A stretch of DNA of 64,000 nt from Terriglobia bacterium (lineage in GTDB: Bacteria; Acidobacteriota; Terriglobia; Acidiferrales; UBA7541): positions 3,360,001 through 3,424,000 of the forward strand of contig OY968796.1 of the NCBI GenBank assembly GCA_963695545.1, in the 5' to 3' direction. The notes under the pieces are model-generated. The model ran no database searches, was not told the DNA's origin, and saw only the letters and a program-made list of their open reading frames with translations. Of this stretch, positions 7,264 to 49,594 are shown in pieces (the stretch's first letter is position 1; every line of letters starts with the position of its first letter). The translations under genes were made by a program, and so were the position numbers.

Positions 7264-7370
7264 CAGCCCCGTAGGGGCGGCAGAGCTTAGCCCAGGGCGT
7301 AAGCCCTGGGCATGCAAAACAAAAATACCTTTCTCTCAGTTGTTTTGTCTGAGCCCCGTAGGGGCGACAC
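7264..7370. repeat. REP family B (GCCCCGTAGGGGC + CCCAGGGCGTAAGCCCTGGG)
   Basis: Two nested palindromes, with the same unit recurring at ~29.2-30.2, 35.5, 41.3, 46.3 and 49.4 kb. Confidence 0.85.
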
Positions 7371-8629: not shown

Positions 8630-8996
8630 GATCGGATTGTTCTCGCATGAAGGCTAGCCCGAAGCTCTGCCAAGTCGGAAGGCTCCCTGTGGGAAGTTGC
8701 GACCGCTCAGTCCACTTGCCAGTGTAGTTAGATAATCGGACAAGTAGCTTTGCGGGATTCCACTTCTCCGGCAAGCGCGTTATACGTCCAGGTGAGATGT
8801 CTCGGTTGCGCAGCGACGCGAGTTGAGTTCGGGTTGGGCACTGCGGGAACAATCGTCCAGCACAAACCCAAGCTCTTACGATCTTGGCAGGCGACACGAA
8901 AACACGCGACGTCGGGATGCAACCATCTCAGTGACCTGACCGGGGTTTTTTGTACCAGCGGGAGTGAGAGAGAATTCACTCTGGAGGGAAGCTGGT

Positions 8997-9275
8997 ATGC
9001 CGATGAGGAGATACAAGCCGGAGCAGATCGTCACGCTGCTGCGGCAAGTTGAAGTTGAAATCGCCAACGGAAAGAGCACCCCACAAGCCTGCAAGGAAGC
9101 CGAGATCACCGCGCAGACCTACTACCGCTGGCGGAAGGAATACGGCGGCCTGAAGTTGGATCAAGCGAAACGCCTCAAAGAGTTGGAGCGGGAAAACGCC
9201 AAGCTGAAACGGTTGGTGGCGGAGCTTTCGTTGGAGAAGCAAATTCTGAAGGATGTGGCAGAGGGAAACTTCTAA
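8997..9275 (+). CDS. IS3 transposase OrfA (HTH + leucine zipper)
   Basis: QTYYRWRKEYGG, RLKELERENAKLKRLVAEL. Ends in -1 slippery heptamer G GGA AAC (9263-9269). Confidence 0.93.
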   Translation: MPMRRYKPEQIVTLLRQVEVEIANGKSTPQACKEAEITAQTYYRWRKEYGGLKLDQAKRLKELERENAKLKRLVAELSLEKQILKDVAEGNF

Positions 9276-9298
9276 GCCCTGAGCGGCGACGTAGCGCG

Positions 9299-10141
9299 GT
9301 GGAGCATGCACGCGAGAGCTACCAAGTATCAGAGCGGCATGCCTGCCGGTTGCTGGGGCAGTGGAGAGGGACACAACGCTACGAGGTGATCCACCGAACG
9401 GATGAAGACGCGCTGACGCGAGACATCGTGGCGCTGGCCAGCGAGTACGGGCGCTTCGGCTATCGGAGGATCACGGCGCTGTTGCAAGCACGGGGCTGGT
9501 ATGTGGGCAAGGATCGGGTGCAGCGGATCTGGCGGCGCGAAGGGCTGAAAGTGCCGCAGGGACAAAGGCCGCGAGGAAGGCTGTGGTTGAACGACGGATC
9601 GTGTGTTCGTCTCCGGCCGGAACGAGCCAACCATGTGTGGAGCTACGATTTCGTGAGCGCGATGACCCACGACGGCCGAACACTGCGAATGCTGACGCTG
9701 ATCGACGAATACACGCGGGAGTGCCTGGCGATCCGCGTGGCGAGAAGGCTGGGGAGATACGAAGTGATCGAAGCGCTGGCGGACGTGATGCTTTACCGGG
9801 GAATTCCGGAACATATTCGCTCGGACAACGGCCCGGAGTTCGTGGCCAAGGAGCTGAGGAGTTGGCTGGCGAAGGTGGGAACGGGGACGCTGTACATCGA
9901 ACCGGGAAGCCCTTGGGAGAATGGCTACTGCGAAAGCTTCAACGGGAAATTGCGCGATGAATGTTTGAACGGAGAGATTTTTTACTCGCTGAAGGAAGCG
10001 CAGATCGTGATCGAGAAATGGCGGATGGTGTACAACACGCTGCGTCCGCACTCAGCGCTGGGCTACAGGCCACCGGCGCCGGTGGCCTGTAGCCCCTTGG
10101 TGCCGCCAATTCTCGGTTCGCCGTCGACGGCTGTGATGTAG
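9299..10141 (+). CDS. IS3 transposase OrfB (DDE integrase core), -1 frame relative to OrfA
   Basis: WSYDF, RSDNGPEF, ENGYCESFNGKLRDE, RPHSALGY. Confidence 0.95.
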   Translation: MEHARESYQVSERHACRLLGQWRGTQRYEVIHRTDEDALTRDIVALASEYGRFGYRRITALLQARGWYVGKDRVQRIWRREGLKVPQGQRPRGRLWLNDGSCVRLRPERANHVWSYDFVSAMTHDGRTLRMLTLIDEYTRECLAIRVARRLGRYEVIEALADVMLYRGIPEHIRSDNGPEFVAKELRSWLAKVGTGTLYIEPGSPWENGYCESFNGKLRDECLNGEIFYSLKEAQIVIEKWRMVYNTLRPHSALGYRPPAPVACSPLVPPILGSPSTAVM

Positions 10142-16968: not shown

Positions 16969-17490
16969 CTATTGAAACATTTTTGCGATGGTCTGCATCG
17001 GCAGAAACAAACGCCTCGGGACCTTGAGGTCGATAAATCCGAATTCCTTGTAAAAGGCTTCGGCTTTTTCGTCCTTCGCATCGACAACCACGGTCCAGGA
17101 TGCAATTTCGCGACTGAGGATGAGACATCGATGAAGGGCGTCCATCAGCAACATCGGGCCTAAGCGAATTCCGTAGTCGATAGCGGTGCTTCGAGCCAGT
17201 CTTCCGATCAAAGTCGCCGGGACCTCGTTGTGCCTGCTCAGTTTTTGCGCAAGAGCCTCCGGGACGCTGTCCAGAAATATCGAATACTGCGACAGTGTGT
17301 AGTAGCCGGCGATGGTCTTACCGTCGGGCGTCATCACGAAGACTGCGGCGAGATTTTTCCTGACGCTTTGGCCCGCTTGCGTTTTGAGATAAATGTCCAG
17401 TTGCGGGACGCCACAAGAAAAAGCCGCCCGGTCGTGATTCGGTCCGAGCGGCTCAAAGACGAAGTTGGGTTGATTTTGACGTTCTGCCAA
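16969..17490 (-). CDS. GNAT acetyltransferase toxin (TacT/AtaT/KacT type)
   Basis: FSCG..QLD.YL, IAGYYTL, PATLIGRLA, VDAKDEKAEAFY..FGF. Coupled to the DUF1778 gene, TTG start. Confidence 0.9.
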   Translation of the reverse strand: MAERQNQPNFVFEPLGPNHDRAAFSCGVPQLDIYLKTQAGQSVRKNLAAVFVMTPDGKTIAGYYTLSQYSIFLDSVPEALAQKLSRHNEVPATLIGRLARSTAIDYGIRLGPMLLMDALHRCLILSREIASWTVVVDAKDEKAEAFYKEFGFIDLKVPRRLFLPMQTIAKMFQ

Positions 17491-17820
17491 TCACAACTCC
17501 ATCGGCTCCATCAGCCCCATGCGTTCTTTATATTCAGCAGCCGCCTTCTTCGCCGCTGCATTGGGTTCGGGCGGATTCAATAGCATGTTGACGAATAGCT
17601 CGCGGCTTGCGTCGCGCAGGTTCAACATCTCGTAGTCCTTGACGGTTGCCGCAGCGGCCTCCTCGAGTTTGGCCACCACAAAATCTGTGAGAGAAGTTCC
17701 GCGCAGTAGTGCAGCGCGTTCGATCAGGCGTTTTTGCTCAGGGGTGAGCCTGGCTTCGAGGCGTTCTGCGCGGCTGGGAGCTTTCCTTGTCGTCCTCACG
17801 GCTCTAGCTGTCCGCGGCAT
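17491..17820 (-). CDS. DUF1778 ribbon-helix-helix antitoxin (TacA/AtaR type)
   Basis: RLEARLT.EQK.LIERAA..G.SLTDFV, F...L.NPPEPN. GGAGG RBS. Confidence 0.9.
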   Translation of the reverse strand: MPRTARAVRTTRKAPSRAERLEARLTPEQKRLIERAALLRGTSLTDFVVAKLEEAAAATVKDYEMLNLRDASRELFVNMLLNPPEPNAAAKKAAAEYKERMGLMEPMEL

Positions 17821-17844
17821 ACTGGCCTCCAATTCACCCTTGCA

Positions 17845-17873
17845 AATGTACGGCAATTTGCCGGGTATGTCAA
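17845..17873 (-). promoter_or_regulatory. sigma70 promoter of the TA operon with palindromic operator in the spacer
   Basis: TTGACA-17 nt-TACATT. Spacer contains the inverted repeat CGGCAA-A-TTGCCG (17851-17863). Confidence 0.75.
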
Positions 17874-26665: not shown

Positions 26666-27109
26666 TCATTTGTAATGCGCGACGCGAGACAAAACCTCGG
26701 CGGGATAATCGCGATTGGCGCCGCCGTTCCAGGCGAGCAGGGCGCGCGTCGCGTCGCCGGCGGCGGCGTCGAATTTCGCGCGCAATTGGCGGCAGCCGAA
26801 TTCGAGGCCAGTGGCGGGATCGCAGAGTTCGGCGAGCGACGCGGCTTCGCAGCCGAGCTCGCGCGCCACCTGGCCCATCAGCTGCATCAGGCCCCAGGAG
26901 ATCGAGCGCGTGTAGGCCTCGGTGGCGGAAATTTTGCCGGCGTTGTAGAGCGGGGCGATGTAGCGCGCGAGAAAACCCGGCTCATAGCGCACGGCCCACG
27001 GATTCCAGGCCGATTCCTGTTCGACGACCGCGCAGACCAGCGGCGGATCGAGTTTGTGCGCGACCGCGGCAACGCGAGCGAGCGCGATGAGTGCGGGCGG
27101 TGCGGACAC
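26666..27109 (-). CDS. soluble lytic transglycosylase (SLT) endolysin
   Basis: AVVEQES.WN.WA, SWGLMQ and ALLAWNGG motifs. Confidence 0.9.
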   Translation of the reverse strand: MSAPPALIALARVAAVAHKLDPPLVCAVVEQESAWNPWAVRYEPGFLARYIAPLYNAGKISATEAYTRSISWGLMQLMGQVARELGCEAASLAELCDPATGLEFGCRQLRAKFDAAAGDATRALLAWNGGANRDYPAEVLSRVAHYK

Positions 27110-27192
27110 TGAATATCTGAAGGGTGAAAATGGGATCGACGGCGCAGCGTCTATGGGCGGAAATCCAAGAGAAACAGAACGGGCGGCACCGT

Positions 27193-27229
27193 AAAAAAGA
27201 AAGGACTCGACCGAAGCCGAGTCCTTTCT
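27193..27229 (-). terminator. intrinsic terminator
   Basis: 14-bp stem AGAAAGGACTCGGC/GTCGAGTCCTTTCT with cUUCGg loop followed by a U tract. Confidence 0.9.
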
Positions 27230-27251
27230 AAGAATCTGTCCTTGCCAAGGT
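27193..27251 (-). ncRNA. predicted ~59-nt sRNA antisense to the adjacent tRNA's anticodon arm
   Basis: Starts 7 nt after a -10 box. First 14 nt ACCUUGGCAAGGAC are the exact reverse complement of tRNA nt 27377-27364. Ends in an intrinsic terminator. Confidence 0.65.
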
Positions 27252-27257
27252 AAGAAC

Positions 27258-27286
27258 AGATTAACCGAAACAGCCTAGGCTGTCAA
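27258..27286 (-). promoter_or_regulatory. sigma70 promoter for the sRNA
   Basis: TTGACA (27286-27281), 17 nt, TAATCT (27263-27258). Overlapped by the perfect palindrome ACAGCCTAGGCTGT (27270-27283). Confidence 0.7.
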
Positions 27287-27332
27287 GATAACTTCCTACG
27301 CATATCCCTTTTTGCATAGGCCATGCAACCGC

Positions 27333-27404
27333 TGGACGCGACGGGGCTCGAACCCGCAACCCGACCTTGGCAAGGACGTGTGTTCCCAATTACACCACGC
27401 GCCC
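27333..27404 (-). tRNA. atypical tRNA, anticodon GCC (Gly) with alanine-type acceptor stem; CCA not encoded
   Basis: Hand-folded cloverleaf GGGCGCG TG GTGT AATTGGGA ACAC A CGTCC TTGCCAA GGTCG GGTT GCGGG TTCGAGC CCCGT CGCGTCC A. Confidence 0.85.
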
Positions 27405-27513
27405 ACGTGTACTACTAACATATCTATCCGTGTCTGACAACACATGGATCGATGGTCCAAGGCTGCGCCACCTGTGAATCGGACCAAAGCGGAAGTCAAA
27501 ACCGCGCACTGTG

Positions 27514-27759
27514 TCAATCGCGGCGCTTGGTGTCGGTCAGGTCGATGAAGCCGATCGCGGGGGGATCCTCGAGATGAATGCCGAGATGATCGGCGATCTG
27601 GCGCAGCGCGTGGTGCAGGTGTGGCAGATGGATCAGCGCCATGGCGGTGACAAAAGTGCGGCGGATTTCATCGTCGCGCATGCGTCGATGCAGCCAACGC
27701 ACGAACAGCGTGAATTGCGCCAGAATCGCGAATGCGACGACGACCCAGTAGGGGTTCAT
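27514..27759 (-). CDS. small single-TM protein (holin candidate)
   Basis: GGAGG RBS, N-terminal TM. Last gene before the endolysin if the tRNA insert is removed. Confidence 0.6.
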   Translation of the reverse strand: MNPYWVVVAFAILAQFTLFVRWLHRRMRDDEIRRTFVTAMALIHLPHLHHALRQIADHLGIHLEDPPAIGFIDLTDTKRRD

Positions 27760-29240: not shown

Positions 29241-30452
29241 TGTCGCCCCTACGGGGCTTAAAACAATTGGAGAAAATATAAAATGGACCGCGTACCCAGG
29301 GCTTACGCCCTGGGCTAAGCTCTGCCGCCCCTACGGGGCTGGTTTTCGTGCGGGCCGCGATTTCGTCACGTGGCGCGACCTCAGCATTGCGCGAAAAAAG
29401 ATGCCGCCCTAAAGGGCGGCGCTACAACGACAAAGTCTACGGCGCAATCACGCGACGTCAACCTTGCGGCAGAAGCAGGGCCAGGGATCGCGGCGCCAGC
29501 CCAGGCGCGCGAGGCGACGGCCGAAGGCGCGCGCGACGGGCGGCGGCAGAAACGCTTGTGCGTCGTCGAGGCCGCGGGCGGCGGCGGCGCGGCGCGTGGC
29601 TTCGTGCATCACCAGAAAACGCTGCCAGCGATCGCGCGGTGTGCCGGCACGCGGATCGTGAAGCAAATATGTTTCGGCGGTCAGGCGCAGGAGCACGCCC
29701 ATGGCCGGCTCGCCGGAATCGTCCTCGAGCACCAATTTTGAAATGAATAGCGGGCTCGTGAGATCGGGAAACGGATAGCCGAAGCCTTGCGCGGCGTGCA
29801 GGCGGCGCAGAGCGTCGAGATCGCGTTCCGTATATTCGCGGATCAACATCTGGGACGAAAGAAGGAAAATTCGACGGACCCGCGTGTGGGGCCGGTGCGA
29901 GGTGGCGCCGGGAGGTGGCGCTCGCCGCGCGATCACAAATCGCTTCGTGATGCAGCCCCGTAGGGGCGGCAGAGCTTAGCCCAGGGCGTAAGCCCTGGGT
30001 GGACAAATCCTCCACACGTTTTTCATCAAATGTTTTTCTTAAGCCCCGTAGGGGCGACACAGTCGTTGAATCAATTGCGGATATCGCGAGCGCTTGTGCC
30101 GCCCCTACGGGGCTAAGACAAAACATTTGGGAATAATCTAATTTGCGAATCGTTCCCAGGGCTTACGCCCTGGGCTAAGCTCTTTCGCCCCTACGGGGCT
30201 GGTTTTCGAGTGCGCGGCGATTTCGTCCCGTGGCGCGATTGTCGCGGGCACGGTTTGCGTAGCACAGCCATTCCTGGCTGTGCGATTTTGGGTTTTCTAC
30301 ACGCGGCGCAAAAAAGCAAAGGCGCACAGGCAGGAATGCCTGTGCTACGAAAAGACGATGGCGCGCCCCGCTACACGAGGCAGAACATTCAGCACGCCCG
30401 CGCGCGGCAAACACCGAGAGATCCCTCGTCGAGGACTCCTCGGGATGACGGC
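29241..30452. repeat. REP clusters flanking the GNAT-like gene (families A, B and others)
   Basis: Family B at 29241-29341, 29953-30061 and 30099-30202. GTAGCACAGCC/CTGTGCTAC pair at ~30258-30348. Confidence 0.8.
29448..29849 (-). CDS. GNAT-like phage protein
   Basis: MLIREYTERDL N-terminus and FGRRLARLGW C-terminus. Position after the nozzle gene as in many podoviruses. Confidence 0.6.
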   Translation of the reverse strand: MLIREYTERDLDALRRLHAAQGFGYPFPDLTSPLFISKLVLEDDSGEPAMGVLLRLTAETYLLHDPRAGTPRDRWQRFLVMHEATRRAAAARGLDDAQAFLPPPVARAFGRRLARLGWRRDPWPCFCRKVDVA

Positions 30453-35368: not shown

Positions 35369-35634
35369 GTGCGTTGCGAGATCAAAGGCGTGACGCCCCT
35401 GCCGGGGCTTGCGCGAGAGACAAAACAACAATTGAGAAAAATATATTAATCGCGATCGTACCCAGGGCTTACGCCCTGGGCTAAAATGTGCCGCCCCTAC
35501 GGGGCTGATTTTTGAGTGCGCCGCGATTCCGGCCTGGAGCTGGCGACGCCGAGATCGCCGCGCAACAGCAAGGTGGAGGCCTGAAGGCCTCCGCTACATA
35601 AATCCGAAGCGATCGTGCATTGGTAGGGGCGCGG

Positions 35635-38413: not shown

Positions 38414-39685
38414 CTAGTAGCCGCTGGGGCGGGCCAGCGTGTCGATGTAGGCGCCGCTGCGCGGAGAATCGGCGAAGAGCTGGAAGCCGGTGTCGAAGTA
38501 GAAGATGAACGCGGCGGAAACGCCGCCGGACGCGCCGTAAATCGGGAACACGGTTTGTCCGCCGACCTCGAAGAAGTCGATGTCCTTCATGACGGCGCGG
38601 CCCCAGTGCGAAAGATCGAGAAAATCGATGCGCGTCTGGTTGGCGTTGATCGAGCTCTTGATCGGCACGCCGGACATGGTCTTGCGTCCGGTGAAAAGCA
38701 GATCGAGATCGCTGGCGCGGCCGCCGCTTCCGCCTTCCTTGATCACCTGGCTGATGGTGATGCCGAGATTCTCCCAGGCATGTTCCTGTTCGACGGAAGT
38801 GTAGGCGATGAGCTTGCCGAGCTGCGCGATGCCCAACGCTTTGCGCACTTTGTTGATCGCCAGACGAACATAGCCGGGCACGAGCGCGGAATTGCCGGCG
38901 TTCACGCGTGGCGTGGCGAGTTGCTGCGGATACGTGGCGCGATTCAGATTCAGCCACGTGCCGGTGGTCGCGTTGTTCTGATGATACGGCACGCCGTAGA
39001 GCGAAACCGGCTGCGCGCCGGAAAGGCCGTCGTGCACGATCACGTCGTTCGCGGTGGTGCCGGTGGGCACGTTGTCGACCACGATGGTTTGCGTGGTGAT
39101 CGGATCGGCTTCGAGCACGGTGGTGGTGACGTTCGCGGCGATGTTGCGATTCGTGGTCAGCGTGGGATCGTAGATCTGAATCACCTGGCCGACGTACACG
39201 AGCGCCGCGCCGGGCGGCACGTTCATGGTGAACGTGGAGCCGGAGAGCGAACCGATCGTGCCGAGCACACCGTTGCCGGCGGTCTGAATCACTTTGTCGA
39301 GGAACGCGCGGAATTGTTTCATTCCGTTGGCGACCTCGCGCTTCACCGCGTTCTCGATGGCTTTTTCCTTGTTGTTCGTGGCGTACTCGACCAGCTTCGA
39401 GATTTCCACCGCGAACCGGAAAAATACCGGCGAGATTTGCGCCACGTCGTAGGTGGTGCCCGAACCGCGGCCCAGATCGCCGCCGTCCGGATTGTAAGCG
39501 CCCGCCGCGCCGCCGGGATTCACTTGCAACGGAATCCGCATGTTGCGCGAGCTGACGCGTTCGACGTCACCGCGCGCCTGGATCATGGTGAGTAGGACGT
39601 CGTCGCGCTCGTAAAGCAGCGGCACTTTGTCCCGCACCTTTTCCAGTTGGATTGCTATGGTCTGCGCATTCTGCATTTGAGCCAT
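38414..39685 (-). CDS. major capsid protein
   Basis: GAGGTG RBS, 423 aa, position downstream of portal, HK97-like alpha/beta pattern with an insertion domain. Confidence 0.75.
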   Translation of the reverse strand: MAQMQNAQTIAIQLEKVRDKVPLLYERDDVLLTMIQARGDVERVSSRNMRIPLQVNPGGAAGAYNPDGGDLGRGSGTTYDVAQISPVFFRFAVEISKLVEYATNNKEKAIENAVKREVANGMKQFRAFLDKVIQTAGNGVLGTIGSLSGSTFTMNVPPGAALVYVGQVIQIYDPTLTTNRNIAANVTTTVLEADPITTQTIVVDNVPTGTTANDVIVHDGLSGAQPVSLYGVPYHQNNATTGTWLNLNRATYPQQLATPRVNAGNSALVPGYVRLAINKVRKALGIAQLGKLIAYTSVEQEHAWENLGITISQVIKEGGSGGRASDLDLLFTGRKTMSGVPIKSSINANQTRIDFLDLSHWGRAVMKDIDFFEVGGQTVFPIYGASGGVSAAFIFYFDTGFQLFADSPRSGAYIDTLARPSGY

Positions 39686-40047: not shown

Positions 40048-40890
40048 CTACATCACAGCCGTCGACGGCGAACCGAGAATTGGCGGCACCAAGGGGCTAC
40101 AGGCCACCGGCGCCGGTGGCCTGTAGCCCAGCGCTGAGTGCGGACGCAGCGTGTTGTACACCATCCGCCATTTCTCGATCACGATCTGCGCTTCCTTCAG
40201 CGAGTAAAAAATCTCTCCGTTCAAACATTCATCGCGCAATTTCCCGTTGAAGCTTTCGCAGTAGCCATTCTCCCAAGGGCTTCCCGGTTCGATGTACAGC
40301 GTCCCCGTTCCCACCTTCGCCAGCCAACTCCTCAGCTCCTTGGCCACGAACTCCGGGCCGTTGTCCGAGCGAATATGTTCCGGAATTCCCCGGTAAAGCA
40401 TCACGTCCGCCAGCGCTTCGATCACTTCGTATCTCCCCAGCCTTCTCGCCACGCGGATCGCCAGGCACTCCCGCGTGTATTCGTCGATCAGCGTCAGCAT
40501 TCGCAGTGTTCGGCCGTCGTGGGTCATCGCGCTCACGAAATCGTAGCTCCACACATGGTTGGCTCGTTCCGGCCGGAGACGAACACACGATCCGTCGTTC
40601 AACCACAGCCTTCCTCGCGGCCTTTGTCCCTGCGGCACTTTCAGCCCTTCGCGCCGCCAGATCCGCTGCACCCGATCCTTGCCCACATACCAGCCCCGTG
40701 CTTGCAACAGCGCCGTGATCCTCCGATAGCCGAAGCGCCCGTACTCGCTGGCCAGCGCCACGATGTCTCGCGTCAGCGCGTCTTCATCCGTTCGGTGGAT
40801 CACCTCGTAGCGTTGTGTCCCTCTCCACTGCCCCAGCAACCGGCAGGCATGCCGCTCTGATACTTGGTAGCTCTCGCGTGCATGCTCCAC
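40048..40890 (-). CDS. IS3 transposase OrfB
   Basis: Translation identical to 9299..10141. Confidence 0.95.
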   Translation of the reverse strand: MEHARESYQVSERHACRLLGQWRGTQRYEVIHRTDEDALTRDIVALASEYGRFGYRRITALLQARGWYVGKDRVQRIWRREGLKVPQGQRPRGRLWLNDGSCVRLRPERANHVWSYDFVSAMTHDGRTLRMLTLIDEYTRECLAIRVARRLGRYEVIEALADVMLYRGIPEHIRSDNGPEFVAKELRSWLAKVGTGTLYIEPGSPWENGYCESFNGKLRDECLNGEIFYSLKEAQIVIEKWRMVYNTLRPHSALGYRPPAPVACSPLVPPILGSPSTAVM

Positions 40891-40913
40891 CGCGCTACGT
40901 CGCCGCTCAGGGC

Positions 40914-41192
40914 TTAGAAGTTTCCCTCTGCCACATCCTTCAGAATTTGCTTCTCCAACGAAAGCTCCGCCACCAACCGTTTCAGCTTGGCGTTTTCCCG
41001 CTCCAACTCTTTGAGGCGTTTCGCTTGATCCAACTTCAGGCCGCCGTATTCCTTCCGCCAGCGGTAGTAGGTCTGCGCGGTGATCTCGGCTTCCTTGCAG
41101 GCTTGTGGGGTGCTCTTTCCGTTGGCGATTTCAACTTCAACTTGCCGCAGCAGCGTGACGATCTGCTCCGGCTTGTATCTCCTCATCGGCAT
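40914..41192 (-). CDS. IS3 transposase OrfA
   Basis: Translation identical to copy 1 OrfA. Confidence 0.93.
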   Translation of the reverse strand: MPMRRYKPEQIVTLLRQVEVEIANGKSTPQACKEAEITAQTYYRWRKEYGGLKLDQAKRLKELERENAKLKRLVAELSLEKQILKDVAEGNF

Positions 41193-41342
41193 ACCAGCTT
41201 CCCTCCAGAGTGAATTCTCTCTCACTCCCGCTGGTACAAAAAACCCCGGTCAGGTCACTACCCCGGGGTTTAACCCGGGGTTAAGCTGTTTCGCCCCTAT
41301 GGGGCTGGCCATCGAGTGACCCCGCAATTTTGGCCCGGACCC

Positions 41343-44170: not shown

Positions 44171-45748
44171 TTACCAGCGGCGCGGGAGAGGCGCGGGGGC
44201 GCGGGCGGCGCGGGACTCGCCGACGAATTTGCGGAGCCAGATGGCGCGCGACGTGGGATCATGCGCGGGGATGCGGCCGGCGAGCGCGAGCTCGGCGGGG
44301 ATGCGCGCGGGCTCGATGCGCGATTTCAGGCCGTAGCGCGCGGCGTCGGCGGCGTCGTCGCCATCGACTTTGCGCACGTCCTCGACGTTCACAGTGTCAC
44401 GCGTGAGCGTGGGCAGGCATTCGAGCAACTGATCGCACGCGCTCGAAATTTGCCACTGACCCGTTTCCATCATTTGATACATGAGCATCCAGCCGCCGAC
44501 GCGATCATTGTCGGCGGGCGCGGGGCGCGGGAGGCCGGCGGCGGCCAGGCCTTCGCCGAGTTGCTCGGCGATGGATGCTTCGGCGGTGCGCTCGGCGAAC
44601 GCGTCAGGCGAAAGAAATATTTCGGCGATGCGCTCGAGTTCGCCGTTGCGGCCGACACTGCGTTCGGCGATCGCGGCGGAAAGCATGCGCGGCGACAAAT
44701 GATTCTGCACGAACTCGCGATACGTGAGCGTGACGCCGTCGGGCCGCGCGGTGTGCCAATAGACCGCGCTGGGATGCTCGAAGCCCCAATCAATCGAAAT
44801 CCAGCGCGGCCACCAGCTTTCAAGCTGGATGGTGTGCGAGGCGACGACATGGCGCGCGCGATCGAAGGAATCGAAATATTGGCCGGCGAAAACATTCCAA
44901 TCGCCGTCGAGAAAAGCCTGGCGCAGGGCTCGCGGCAGCGCGCGCAAAGTTTTCAGATACGATTCGTCGTTCGCGTAAATCGGATTGTCGCGCACCGTCG
45001 CGCGAATGAAAGCGTAATCGCGCGGATCGTATTCACCGGCCTGCTCCATGCCGGGCGCGGGACGCTTTTCGATCCACAACGCTTTCACCCAGGCGTGGCC
45101 GGTGTTGCCGGGATTCGTGGCGCCGGCCATGTTGGGCCGGGCGTCGCGCAGGGGGCAGCGATTTCGCGACGTTAGAAATTGCCACTGGCGCAGCGTGAAG
45201 TGCGTTAGCTCGTCGATGCCGATGAAAACGAATTCCGCGCCCTGATATTGATAGACGTCGTTTTCGCTGGCGGAATATCCGAAGCGCGTGGTCGAGCCAT
45301 TTTTCCAGGTGACGATGTGTTTCGAGTCGTTGTAGCGCAAATATAAATTGCGCGGCACGTCGCGCCGGAAATATCCGAGCAGCGAGGCTTCGAGTTCCGG
45401 AAACGTGCGGCGCGGAAGCAGCGTGTCAACGCCGGGATATTGATTCGCCTGGCGGATGGCTTCCCACAGCAGCGCTTTGGTTTTTCCGGGACCAGCCGCG
45501 CCACCGAACAGGCGATACTTCGCGTTCGAGCGATGAAATTCTTCCTGGCGCGGAAACGGGCGATAGTGTTCCGAGATCACGATGCCGCGGCGCGGACGCG
45601 GCGCGCCGGGGACGATGTCGTCGACGAGCGCGTCGTCTTGATCGGCGTCGTCGTCGAGCGGATCGTCGGCGCGTGCCGTCGCGTCAAGAGAAACATCGCC
45701 GCGGCTCTTTTTCTTCGCGCGCGGGTGTTTGCGTTTCTTGGCCGGCAT
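44171..45748 (-). CDS. terminase large subunit
   Basis: Walker A GGAAGPGKT, Walker B FIGIDE, ATNPG, DNPIY, RNase H motifs IDWGFEHP and DDAADAARY. Confidence 0.93.
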   Translation of the reverse strand: MPAKKRKHPRAKKKSRGDVSLDATARADDPLDDDADQDDALVDDIVPGAPRPRRGIVISEHYRPFPRQEEFHRSNAKYRLFGGAAGPGKTKALLWEAIRQANQYPGVDTLLPRRTFPELEASLLGYFRRDVPRNLYLRYNDSKHIVTWKNGSTTRFGYSASENDVYQYQGAEFVFIGIDELTHFTLRQWQFLTSRNRCPLRDARPNMAGATNPGNTGHAWVKALWIEKRPAPGMEQAGEYDPRDYAFIRATVRDNPIYANDESYLKTLRALPRALRQAFLDGDWNVFAGQYFDSFDRARHVVASHTIQLESWWPRWISIDWGFEHPSAVYWHTARPDGVTLTYREFVQNHLSPRMLSAAIAERSVGRNGELERIAEIFLSPDAFAERTAEASIAEQLGEGLAAAGLPRPAPADNDRVGGWMLMYQMMETGQWQISSACDQLLECLPTLTRDTVNVEDVRKVDGDDAADAARYGLKSRIEPARIPAELALAGRIPAHDPTSRAIWLRKFVGESRAARAPAPLPRRW

Positions 45749-49274: not shown

Positions 49275-49594
49275 GCGGATCTCCCTCGTCGAGAATTTCG
49301 GGCGCGAGCGCGTCGGAGTGTTCGGGTGGCACGAGCGGCGCGAAAGAAAAGATGTGTCGCCCCTACGGGGCTTAAAACAAATGGAGAAGAAATATTTTTG
49401 CTGCGCGTACCCAGGGCTTACGCCCTGGGCTAAGCTCTTTCGCCCCTACGGGGCTGGTTTTTCGGCGCCGTCGCGATTGCGCGGCGTGGCGTCAGATGTT
49501 GGTGCGGTTCGCACGTGAAAAGCAAGATGGAGGCCTGAAGGCCTCCGCTACATAAGGCAAAAGACAATTCGCGATCGCGCCGCGCGCCTCGCGG

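Follow-up and report, generated by a model that had tools for sequence, protein, structure and literature searches.

What would a cell do with a tRNA whose anticodon specifies one amino acid and whose acceptor stem specifies another? The question is raised by a gene in a 64,000-nucleotide (nt) stretch of a Terriglobia genome (Acidobacteriota; assembly GCA_963695545.1, contig OY968796.1, positions 3,360,001 to 3,424,000; hereafter, the window), which joins a glycine anticodon to the acceptor features of an alanine tRNA. The original prediction, made from the letters of the window, held that alanyl-tRNA synthetase (AlaRS) rather than glycyl-tRNA synthetase (GlyRS) would charge this tRNA, that alanine would be inserted at glycine codons, and that an antisense guard would be needed. 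Following up this prediction, we found the guard to be its most remarkable element. The explanation that we favor, with a confidence that falls just short of even, is an AlaRS-charged, potentially mistranslating tRNA that would be restrained by a dedicated antisense RNA.

Charging identity of the tRNA

The focal gene encodes a 72-nt cloverleaf, read from 27404 to 27333 on the minus strand. It scored 54.1 bits with the Rfam tRNA model, the sole Rfam match at E up to 1 over 27050-27550, and ARAGORN called it tRNA-Gly(GCC) at 27331-27405 on the same strand. The acceptor stem (GGGCGCG/CGCGUCC) consists of G1-C72, G2-C71, G3.U70 (27402/27336), C4-G69, G5-C68, C6-G67, and G7-C66, and the discriminator is A73 (27333). 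G18, G19, and G20 are present in the D loop (AAUUGGGA). The anticodon stem has C27-G43 and G28-C42 on one side of a central U29.U41 mismatch and C30-G40 and C31-G39 on the other, closing a canonical loop (UUGCCAA) with the anticodon GCC at 27371-27369. The variable loop is 4 nt long, and the T arm (GCGGG-UUCGAGC-CCCGU) is normal. No CCA is encoded, the bases after A73 being GCG. ARAGORN also paired U(-1) with A73, a possible eighth acceptor pair. Every feature from which the original prediction had started (G1-C72, G2-C71, G3-U70, A73, GCC, U29-U41, and no CCA) is thus present in the sequence.

Bacterial alanine identity is given as A73, G2-C71, G3.U70, G4-C69, and G20, and bacterial glycine identity as U73, G1-C72, C2-G71, G3-C70, C35, and C36 (Giegé and Eriani, Table 1, PMC9976931). 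The focal tRNA has G3.U70, A73, G2-C71, G1-C72, and G20. Its 4-69 pair is C-G where the published set has G-C, although C4-G69 also occurs in two alanine tRNAs of the host, tRNA-Ala(UGC) and tRNA-Ala(CGC). The only elements of the glycine set that it contains are G1-C72, C35, and C36; U73, C2-G71, and G3-C70 are absent, and all three are present in each of the three canonical host tRNA-Gly genes. Furthermore, acceptor stem and discriminator are identical to those of a CCA-encoding tRNA-Ala(UGC) in another genome of the order (G013). The host genome encodes AlaRS (888 bits), GlyQ of a heterotetrameric GlyRS (439 bits), and two CCA-type nucleotidyltransferases (PolyA_pol/CCA-type), and no dimeric GlyRS scored above the cutoff in it. 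Because the alanine set is present, the glycine set is mostly missing, and the host enzymes are of these types, alanylation would be the expected outcome once the RNA had matured, a step that is itself presumed. On these comparisons with the published sets (PMC9976931), the identity argument of the original prediction stands.

We also placed the gene among the other tRNAs of its host, whose genome (G000) is a single 4.16-Mb contig with 54 ARAGORN calls. The combination of G3.U70 and A73 is limited to three canonical tRNA-Ala genes and the focal gene; one irregular call has G3/U70 but G73. CCA ends 46 of the 54 calls, and the other eight are the focal gene and seven mostly irregular calls. The genome also contains a separate canonical tRNA-Gly(GCC) with C2-G71, G3-C70, U73, CCA, and the anticodon stem ACAGC/GCUGU. 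Ranking host tRNAs by whole-sequence identity to the focal tRNA was uninformative, with 49 to 53 of 72 positions shared for many isotypes. The predicted abundance of the GGC codon was borne out: it is the second most used codon, at 6.0% of 11,778 codons in 23 long open reading frames (ORFs) of the window. Two further host calls, 93 to 97 nt long, without CCA, and labeled tRNA-Ile(UAU) (C1:344768-344860 and C1:2007231-2007327), resemble the allo-tRNA(UAU) and the polycistronic irregular acidobacterial tRNAs described by Mukai et al. (PMC5389517); one of them sits 15 nt past an irregular 69-nt call labeled tRNA-Gly(UCC) (C1:2007148-2007216).

Conservation across a tRNA family

A genome of the same genus (G003) contains a syntenic gene that is identical to the focal tRNA at 71 of 72 bases, whereas its flanks are ~80 to 85% identical and the surrounding segments ~73 to 89%. 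Fine alignment delimited a conserved block that begins at a TATG(T/A)T box, takes in the tRNA and a trailer of ~140 nt, and closes with an intrinsic terminator. Judged by this contrast, the focal gene is under selection. When 401 genomes of the order were searched with the tRNA and its trailer, matches occurred in 11, including the host; one was a canonical tRNA-Gly (G288), and another was the CCA-encoding tRNA-Ala(UGC) of G013. Eight homologs in the host's own bacterial family start with GGG, end with UCC-A73 without CCA, and keep G3.U70. Their anticodon is GCC in G003, G121, G305, and G055 and GUC in G124, G059, G110, and G294. In a pattern search, the gene was found within this bacterial family in 9 of the 401 genomes and 7 of 29 genera.

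A wider scan covered 185,579 species genomes, using a pattern in which positions 1 to 6, 70, and 73 were free. At least 125 stretches matched and 80 were examined, nearly all from Acidobacteriota/Terriglobales assemblies. We kept 71 as family members on the basis of a GG start, A73, and no CCA, so that the last two features hold by definition. The nine that were dropped were five canonical tRNA-Asp genes (G73, other phyla), one archaeal tRNA-Ala, one actinobacterial CCA-bearing gene (L103), and two genes with the 5' end out of register (L097 and L166). Within the 71-member set, G3 occurs in 70 tRNAs, U70 in 70, and the intact G3.U70 pair in 69. The triplet at positions 34 to 36 is GUC in 55, GCG in 13, and GCC in one (with an 8-nt loop), while two had no ARAGORN call; none of these triplets is an alanine anticodon. 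Because the genomes of the wider scan are mutually related and may overlap those compared above, these counts do not represent independent events. The original prediction had named the conservation of G3-U70 and A73 in homologs as a check. They are kept in G003, in the eight loci of the bacterial family, and in the 69 wider members. This conservation adds strength to the identity argument, and the refuting condition of the original prediction, that homologs would reveal G3-U70 as a private decay mutation, does not hold.

The scans yielded several other observations. Two modules were found on the same contig in three cases (L135/L136, L160/L161, and L167/L168), separated by 1.4 to 1.5 kb in two assemblies and by 7 kb in the third. 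The excluded L103, from Actinomycetota, is a CCA-encoding tRNA with the acceptor GGGGACG/CGCCUCC, G3.U70, A73, and, according to ARAGORN, the glycine anticodon ACC; it is possibly a further alanine-identity tRNA with a glycine anticodon in another phylum, without a downstream complement. A viral tRNA encoded at the two ends of one 69-kb IMG/VR contig (L029 and L037) has the acceptor GGGGUGG/CCACUCC, G3.U70, A73, and an 8-nt anticodon loop that ARAGORN took as a four-base anticodon. The D-arm signature GUGGUGUAA failed as a family marker, being present in IMG/VR tRNAs of many isotypes (58 loci).

A downstream complement that covaries with the anticodon arm

The antisense guard takes the form of a short segment, ACCUUGGCAAGGAC, that complements the anticodon arm of the focal tRNA. 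It begins 7 nt past the -10 box of a candidate promoter (P2) and, because of this spacing, is probably the 5' end of a small RNA. In G003, the pairing between tRNA and antisense is retained through one G.U. A segment of 12 to 22 nt at the same distance, complementary to the differing anticodon arm of its own genome, was found at 8 of the first 10 loci examined. The complement in G055 is a degraded copy (roughly 14/17 by eye), and the true tRNA-Ala of G013 has no downstream complement.

The same relationship holds in the 71-member set, in which the anticodon stem-loop (ASL) region occurs in 53 distinct sequences. The longest downstream complement had a median length of 14 nt, reaching at least 10 nt in 62 members and at least 12 nt in 52. 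By comparison, complements of at least 10 nt were found in the upstream flank of 2/71 members, and same-sense copies of that length downstream of 1/71. When tRNAs and antisense segments were swapped between members, the median fell to 7 nt, with 123 of 1,372 combinations at 12 nt or more. Single internal mismatches in the duplex were G.U in 10 cases, A.C in none, and of another kind in 10, which argues for pairing between RNAs on the tRNA strand and not for a DNA repeat or an opposite-strand RNA. Taken together, complement lengths, controls, and mismatch types indicate that the predicted guard is real and that the putative downstream RNA covaries with the anticodon arm of its own tRNA. An ASL:anti-ASL helix was also contained in both the minimum free energy fold of the whole host transcript and a cofold of the tRNA with the 3' part, computations that took in 13 nt past the terminator and give only approximate energies. 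At two loci, the 5' portion of the anticodon arm is repeated in the same sense within the presumed promoter of the tRNA (14 nt at -29 from the tRNA start in L017 from G124; 9 nt at -38 in L018 from G059), and this copy may be a further target of the small RNA or a mark of arm renewal.

Organization of the two-RNA module

The features of the host module are collected in Table 1. The candidate -10 box of the tRNA promoter (P1) reads TATGAT in G003 and lies there inside the conserved block. Of the 71 loci, 50 have a TAnnnT box that begins at -12 or -13, and 55 have one within -20 to -8, a placement from which transcripts would start at, or adjoining, G1. A TGTGA motif occurs at -50 or -49 in 21 of them. 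One or two hairpins lie 3' of the family tRNAs. The loop of the second hairpin (H1) complements tRNA nt 29 to 39 over 6 nt or more in 57/69 loci, against 164/1,430 combinations when the GUC and GCG groups were swapped, and the H1 stem shows compensatory changes. The trailer hairpin of the host is a short counterpart of H1.

In 45 aligned trailers, the P2 element comprises an invariant TTGAC, a variable spacer of 17 to 18 nt, and a conserved GATAAT/AATACT; its layout recurs in eight loci of the host's own bacterial family, ~100 nt downstream of each tRNA. The complement, with 12 to 23 nt of perfect match to the anticodon arm of its own genome, follows within about 6 to 12 nt of P2 and is succeeded by a GC hairpin and U tract, equivalents of which stand at every family locus displayed. 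We infer that the TTGAC-spacer-TAnnnT element is a σ70-type promoter for an RNA of ~60 nt with the antisense seed at its 5' end. The terminator is predicted to end both a read-through transcript of the tRNA and, in the host, a small RNA of ~62 nt (27251..27190). Two soil metatranscriptome contigs from two studies, with ~94% match to 27246-27387 and 27233-27382, extend from the tRNA body across the trailer into the first part of the antisense segment, and they carry the same substitutions as G003. Such libraries may contain DNA, and the contigs give a weak hint of a read-through transcript that spans the tRNA, trailer, and antisense start.

Table 1. Features of the module in the host genome (window coordinates)
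Feature	Position	Strand	Description
tRNA with alanine-type acceptor and anticodon GCC	27333..27404	minus	Rfam tRNA model, ARAGORN, and reading of the sequence
Candidate P1 -10 box of the tRNA, TATGTT	27417..27422	minus	13-18 nt upstream of G1; putative
Trailer hairpin UUGCAU-GGCCU-AUGCAA	27312..27328	minus	Loop showing GGC, the codon matching the anticodon; from the sequence
Candidate promoter P2 of the antisense RNA	27258..27286	minus	TTGACA 27286-27281, 17-nt spacer, TAATCT 27263-27258; putative
Anti-anticodon-arm segment ACCUUGGCAAGGAC	27238..27251	minus	Perfect 14-nt complement of tRNA nt 28-41
Intrinsic terminator	27190..27229	minus	14-pair stem 27229-27198 plus U tract; terminator scan; conserved in G003

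Genomic context and distribution

The host module lies inside a prophage-like cluster that includes genes for a large terminase (44171-45748), a major head protein (38414-39685), and an SLT lysozyme (26666-27109), all on the minus strand. Four other congeners share this cluster in the same gene order, but the interval from their lysozyme gene to the next ORF contains neither a tRNA nor anything similar to the module. Ordinary and mutually unrelated chromosomal genes (e.g., those for SelA, AIR carboxylase, an α/β-hydrolase, and an aldehyde dehydrogenase) flank the module in seven other genera. Its distribution is patchy and independent of context. The family pattern had no match in IMG/VR (2.9 million viral contigs), and a first viral scan with an anticodon-arm pattern gave 0 matches. 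Owing to the unrelated flanks, the absence from congeners, and the lack of an IMG/VR match, the module is, by this comparison of loci, a small self-contained chromosomal accessory element and not a phage tRNA. These observations, along with the patchy spread, led us to reject a phage-encoded helper tRNA, and the connection that the original prediction drew to the glycine-rich tail proteins of the phage proved incidental.

The flanks offered no partner gene either. No aminoacyl-transferase or other gene is conserved beside the module among the flanking ORFs of the compared loci, and no synthetase domain was found among the ORFs of the window or those flanking eight other loci. We also considered a T-box-like leader of the lysozyme gene (26666-27109). 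This was rejected, since the modules at other loci run up against unrelated genes of opposite orientation. Such a convergent gene lies opposite the terminator in G121 and G055, and the neighbors change from genus to genus, unlike a leader, which would lie upstream of the gene that it controls.

Several features of the surrounding DNA can be recorded. The phage-like cluster (~24000-46000) keeps the same order at ~73 to 86% DNA identity in five congeneric species, which suggests that the element derives from a phage but is old, and possibly domesticated, rather than a prophage acquired recently. It is interrupted by an IS3-type element (40048-41225), with identical IS proteins encoded at 8964-10141. 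Six copies of the Rfam family Acido-Lenti-1 (~60 bits each; 7265-7310, 29295-29340, 29954-29999, 30155-30200, 35461-35506, and 49410-49455) are distributed over the two strands, most of them in intergenic positions of the cluster, and a separate repeat of ~28 nt occurs at about ten places (e.g., 28598, 33840, 35574, 44119, 46211, and 48769). An ORF for a TacA-type antitoxin (17491-17856, PF08681, minus strand) lies directly upstream of a 173-amino-acid ORF (16969-17490) without a Pfam match. TacT-type partners acetylate charged tRNAs, so this locus may be a second tRNA-directed module nearby.

A proposed mechanism

We propose that the focal tRNA makes up half of a self-contained module of two RNAs in Terriglobales-type Acidobacteriota. 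It would be trimmed, provided with CCA, and then alanylated by the host AlaRS, while the heterotetrameric GlyRS would charge it poorly if at all. The other half would be a small RNA of ~60 nt, transcribed from the same strand by its own strong promoter ~100 nt downstream. The 5' end of this RNA would pair with tRNA nt 21 to 42, which span the 3' half of the D stem, the 5' half of the anticodon stem, and the anticodon loop. By masking or unfolding the anticodon arm, it would keep the alanine-charged tRNA off the ribosome, and the loop of the 3'-trailer hairpin, which is also complementary to the anticodon loop, might act alongside. Loss of the small RNA would then place alanine at GGC and GGU codons, or at GAC/GAU or CGC/CGU codons in relatives. 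The logic would be that of a toxin-antitoxin system, or of regulated mistranslation, built of RNA alone.

A more specific version is possible but more tentative. It describes an RNA-only toxin-antitoxin or defense module, widespread but patchy in Terriglobales, in which the toxin would be an AlaRS-charged tRNA that recodes common Gly, Asp, or Arg codons to alanine. A promoter-proximal small RNA would act as the antitoxin by unfolding the anticodon arm of this tRNA, with the codon-like precursor hairpin serving as a second mask.

Can the tRNA decode?

Several observations weigh against a mistranslating tRNA, some of which come from the anticodon arms of the 65 distinct family tRNAs in which decoding features were counted. 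Although the inner stem pairs 31-39 and 30-40 are formed in 65/65, pairing declines outward to 56/65 at 29-41, 38/65 at 28-42, and 24/65 at 27-43. Position 33 is C in 11/65, and position 37 is C in 29/65 and U in 2/65. Loops with C33 or a pyrimidine at 37 are unusual in working tRNAs. A decoding role for the family is weakened by these noncanonical loops and weak outer stem pairs, and such a degenerate arm would fit an RNA whose arm mainly pairs with a small RNA. The host copy has a canonical loop, yet its stem contains the U.U mismatch. There is precedent in the same phylum, as some irregular acidobacterial tRNAs are charged but unused in translation according to Mukai et al. (PMC5389517). 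Other points concern maturation, transcription, and charging. No RNase Z equivalog scored above the cutoff in the host genome, while the gene encodes no CCA. A promoter scan of 27100-27520 in the host called neither P1 nor P2, which for P2 is explained by a -10 box that matches the consensus at only three of six bases. Lastly, some degree of glycylation through C35 and C36 could be conceived. Outside the anticodon arm, pairing reaches 97% or more of the 65 tRNAs in the acceptor, D, and T stems (the T stem being partly fixed by the search pattern). On the other side, the triplet at 34 to 36 is fixed within groups while positions 33, 37, and 38 vary, which suggests that the triplet itself matters.

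These data bear most closely on the alternative that the RNA has the shape of a tRNA but a regulatory role and no part in decoding. It would be recognized by AlaRS or by some other protein that reads G3.U70 (e.g., DTD) and, together with the small RNA, would form a sensing, sponging, or non-ribosomal alanine-donor circuit, and the anticodon arm would serve as a docking site only. The degenerate anticodon stems and the frequent departures at positions 33 and 37, next to well-paired acceptor, D, and T arms, are what this alternative would lead one to expect. It is also in keeping with the fact that AlaRS requires only the acceptor/T minihelix. Minihelix alanylation is treated in PMC11392972, and regulatory roles were among those proposed for the charged but untranslating acidobacterial tRNAs (PMC5389517). 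Yet a pure docking site needs no 7-nt loop closed by two invariant pairs and does not account for a triplet that is constant within groups (GUC in 55/71) amid varying neighbors, and a donor circuit finds no conserved aminoacyl-transferase or other partner gene beside the module. We regard this alternative as rather unlikely, if a serious contender, and rank the mistranslation reading above it.

The remaining alternatives fare worse. Roles might be reversed, with the small RNA as the active component, binding the anticodon loops of normal tRNA-Gly, -Asp, and -Arg or other targets, and the tRNA-like RNA as a decoy or antidote. The 5' end of the small RNA does contain the exact complement of a 7-nt anticodon loop, and P2 appears stronger than P1. 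But pairing extends into stem sequence unlike that of canonical host tRNAs, such as the ACAGC/GCUGU stem of tRNA-Gly(GCC), and the seed drifts freely with its partner over 53 sequences, which speaks against a conserved external target; a decoy, moreover, would have no need of the G3.U70 pair kept in 69/71. We therefore consider a reversal improbable. Slightly more so is the reading of the gene as one more ordinary tRNA-Gly(GCC), of phage type, that would carry glycine and aid translation of the abundant GGC codon. Such a helper would explain C35, C36, and G1-C72 as glycine determinants, a body (nt 7 to 65) that is ~80% identical to tRNA-Gly(GCC) genes of Streptomyces phages, and the position in a prophage-like cluster of a genome region in which GGC makes up 6.0% of codons. 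It is contradicted by the absence of U73, C2-G71, and G3-C70 in a host with the bacterial heterotetrameric GlyRS, by relatives that combine the same acceptor with GUC or GCG, by a family pattern without an IMG/VR match, and by a covarying antisense RNA for which a helper has no use. Least probable is a tRNA pseudogene in decay, the remains of a prophage attachment site, or an arm of a DNA inversion or recombination site. The U29.U41 mismatch, the missing CCA, the prophage-like surroundings, and the complement, which is formally an inverted DNA repeat, could be read in this way. However, decay is at odds with 71/72 identity between species within flanks that diverge by 15 to 25% and with conserved stems in a large family, and the terminators and promoters share one direction. 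An invertible switch or attachment-site remnant was rejected in view of mismatches that are G.U and not A.C (10 versus 0) and of the fact that inverting the segment would not restore a tRNA.

Comparison with known systems

The closest precedent for an alanine-charged tRNA with a foreign anticodon is the acidobacterial allo-tRNAs, which come from the same phylum, are natural, and in some cases combine G3:U70 with a nonalanine anticodon, as the focal family does (Mukai et al., Nucleic Acids Res 2017, PMC5389517). Examples with the anticodon GCG or UUA inserted alanine in Escherichia coli after an amber anticodon swap; missense suppression and/or regulatory roles were proposed, and toxin-antitoxin neighborhoods were remarked upon (PMC5389517). 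The allo-tRNAs are built differently, in that their acceptor/T arms are of the 8/4 or 9/3 type, their variable arm is long, and their D arm is like that of tRNA-Sec, whereas the focal family has a standard 7/5 cloverleaf with a variable loop of 4 to 5 nt (PMC5389517). Even the extra U(-1):A73 pair would make the branch 8/5. The covarying antisense RNA is a feature of the focal family, and none is mentioned for allo-tRNAs in the parts of PMC5389517 used here.

The original prediction had instead pointed to the Streptomyces tRNA-ProA. This comparison holds in that acceptor identity and anticodon disagree in both, the tRNAProX (tRNAProA/N/T)/ProRSx systems of Streptomyces and Kitasatospora having caused mistranslation when expressed in E. 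coli (PMC11415595). Both also have unusual anticodon loops, with A33 in tRNAProX and C33 or C37 in members of the focal family (PMC11415595). It breaks down at the synthetase: tRNAProX has proline identity and a dedicated synthetase gene, while the focal module has alanine identity and no adjoining synthetase gene. An antisense partner, present here, is not part of the description of tRNAProX in the portion of PMC11415595 cited. The principle that a tRNA-Ala body with another anticodon puts alanine at that codon, because AlaRS ignores the anticodon, is shared with yeast and human tRNA-Ala anticodon variants (bioRxiv 10.1101/2022.11.23.517754; PMC12084884). As presented there, those variants are engineered or rare alleles of a normal tRNA-Ala, in contrast to a conserved bacterial family with its own regulator.

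The module also resembles RNA-antitoxin systems in being a compact two-gene unit with patchy accessory spread, sometimes in two nearby copies (L135/L136 and L160/L161), in which a strong promoter for a small antisense RNA lies beside a potentially harmful stable product. As in such systems, the adjacent antisense RNA is specific for its partner, given the covarying complement and the conserved promoter and terminator. Toxin-antitoxin systems with RNA antitoxins are those of types I, III, and VIII. Eight types in all are mentioned in PMC11869752. Among the RNA-antitoxin systems known so far, the role of toxin falls to a protein, to its mRNA, or to a small RNA, whereas the candidate toxin here is a chargeable tRNA. 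In the open-access literature that we searched, we found no chargeable tRNA acting as a toxin and no description of this module or of any tRNA with a dedicated anti-anticodon small RNA.

A further likeness is to tmRNA, which has an alanine-charged tRNA-like domain with G3.U70 and a long helix in place of the anticodon arm. The duplex of focal tRNA and small RNA would resemble that helix, but in the focal RNA both the D arm and the anticodon arm are complete. Nor is any reading frame conserved in the small RNA, since one in the host ends after five codons, whereas G003 has no nearby stop. In view of the full cloverleaf, the lack of a conserved frame, and a canonical tmRNA elsewhere in the genome, we rejected a tmRNA-like two-piece RNA.

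If the focal tRNA decodes, abundant codons would be mistranslated in a regulated, genetically encoded manner, and RNA toxins would gain a new class. Otherwise, the family would be a new kind of regulatory RNA in the shape of a tRNA, matched with a dedicated partner. The finding also has a bearing on the annotation of "tRNA-Asp/Gly/Arg" genes in soil Acidobacteriota, where ARAGORN named the genes of this family by their anticodon. Natural tRNAs in which charging identity and anticodon clash are rare and known mainly from the Streptomyces tRNAProX and the acidobacterial allo-tRNAs. To these, the focal family adds a standard cloverleaf with a near-universal alanine pair, anticodons for three nonalanine amino acids, and a built-in, covarying antisense RNA.

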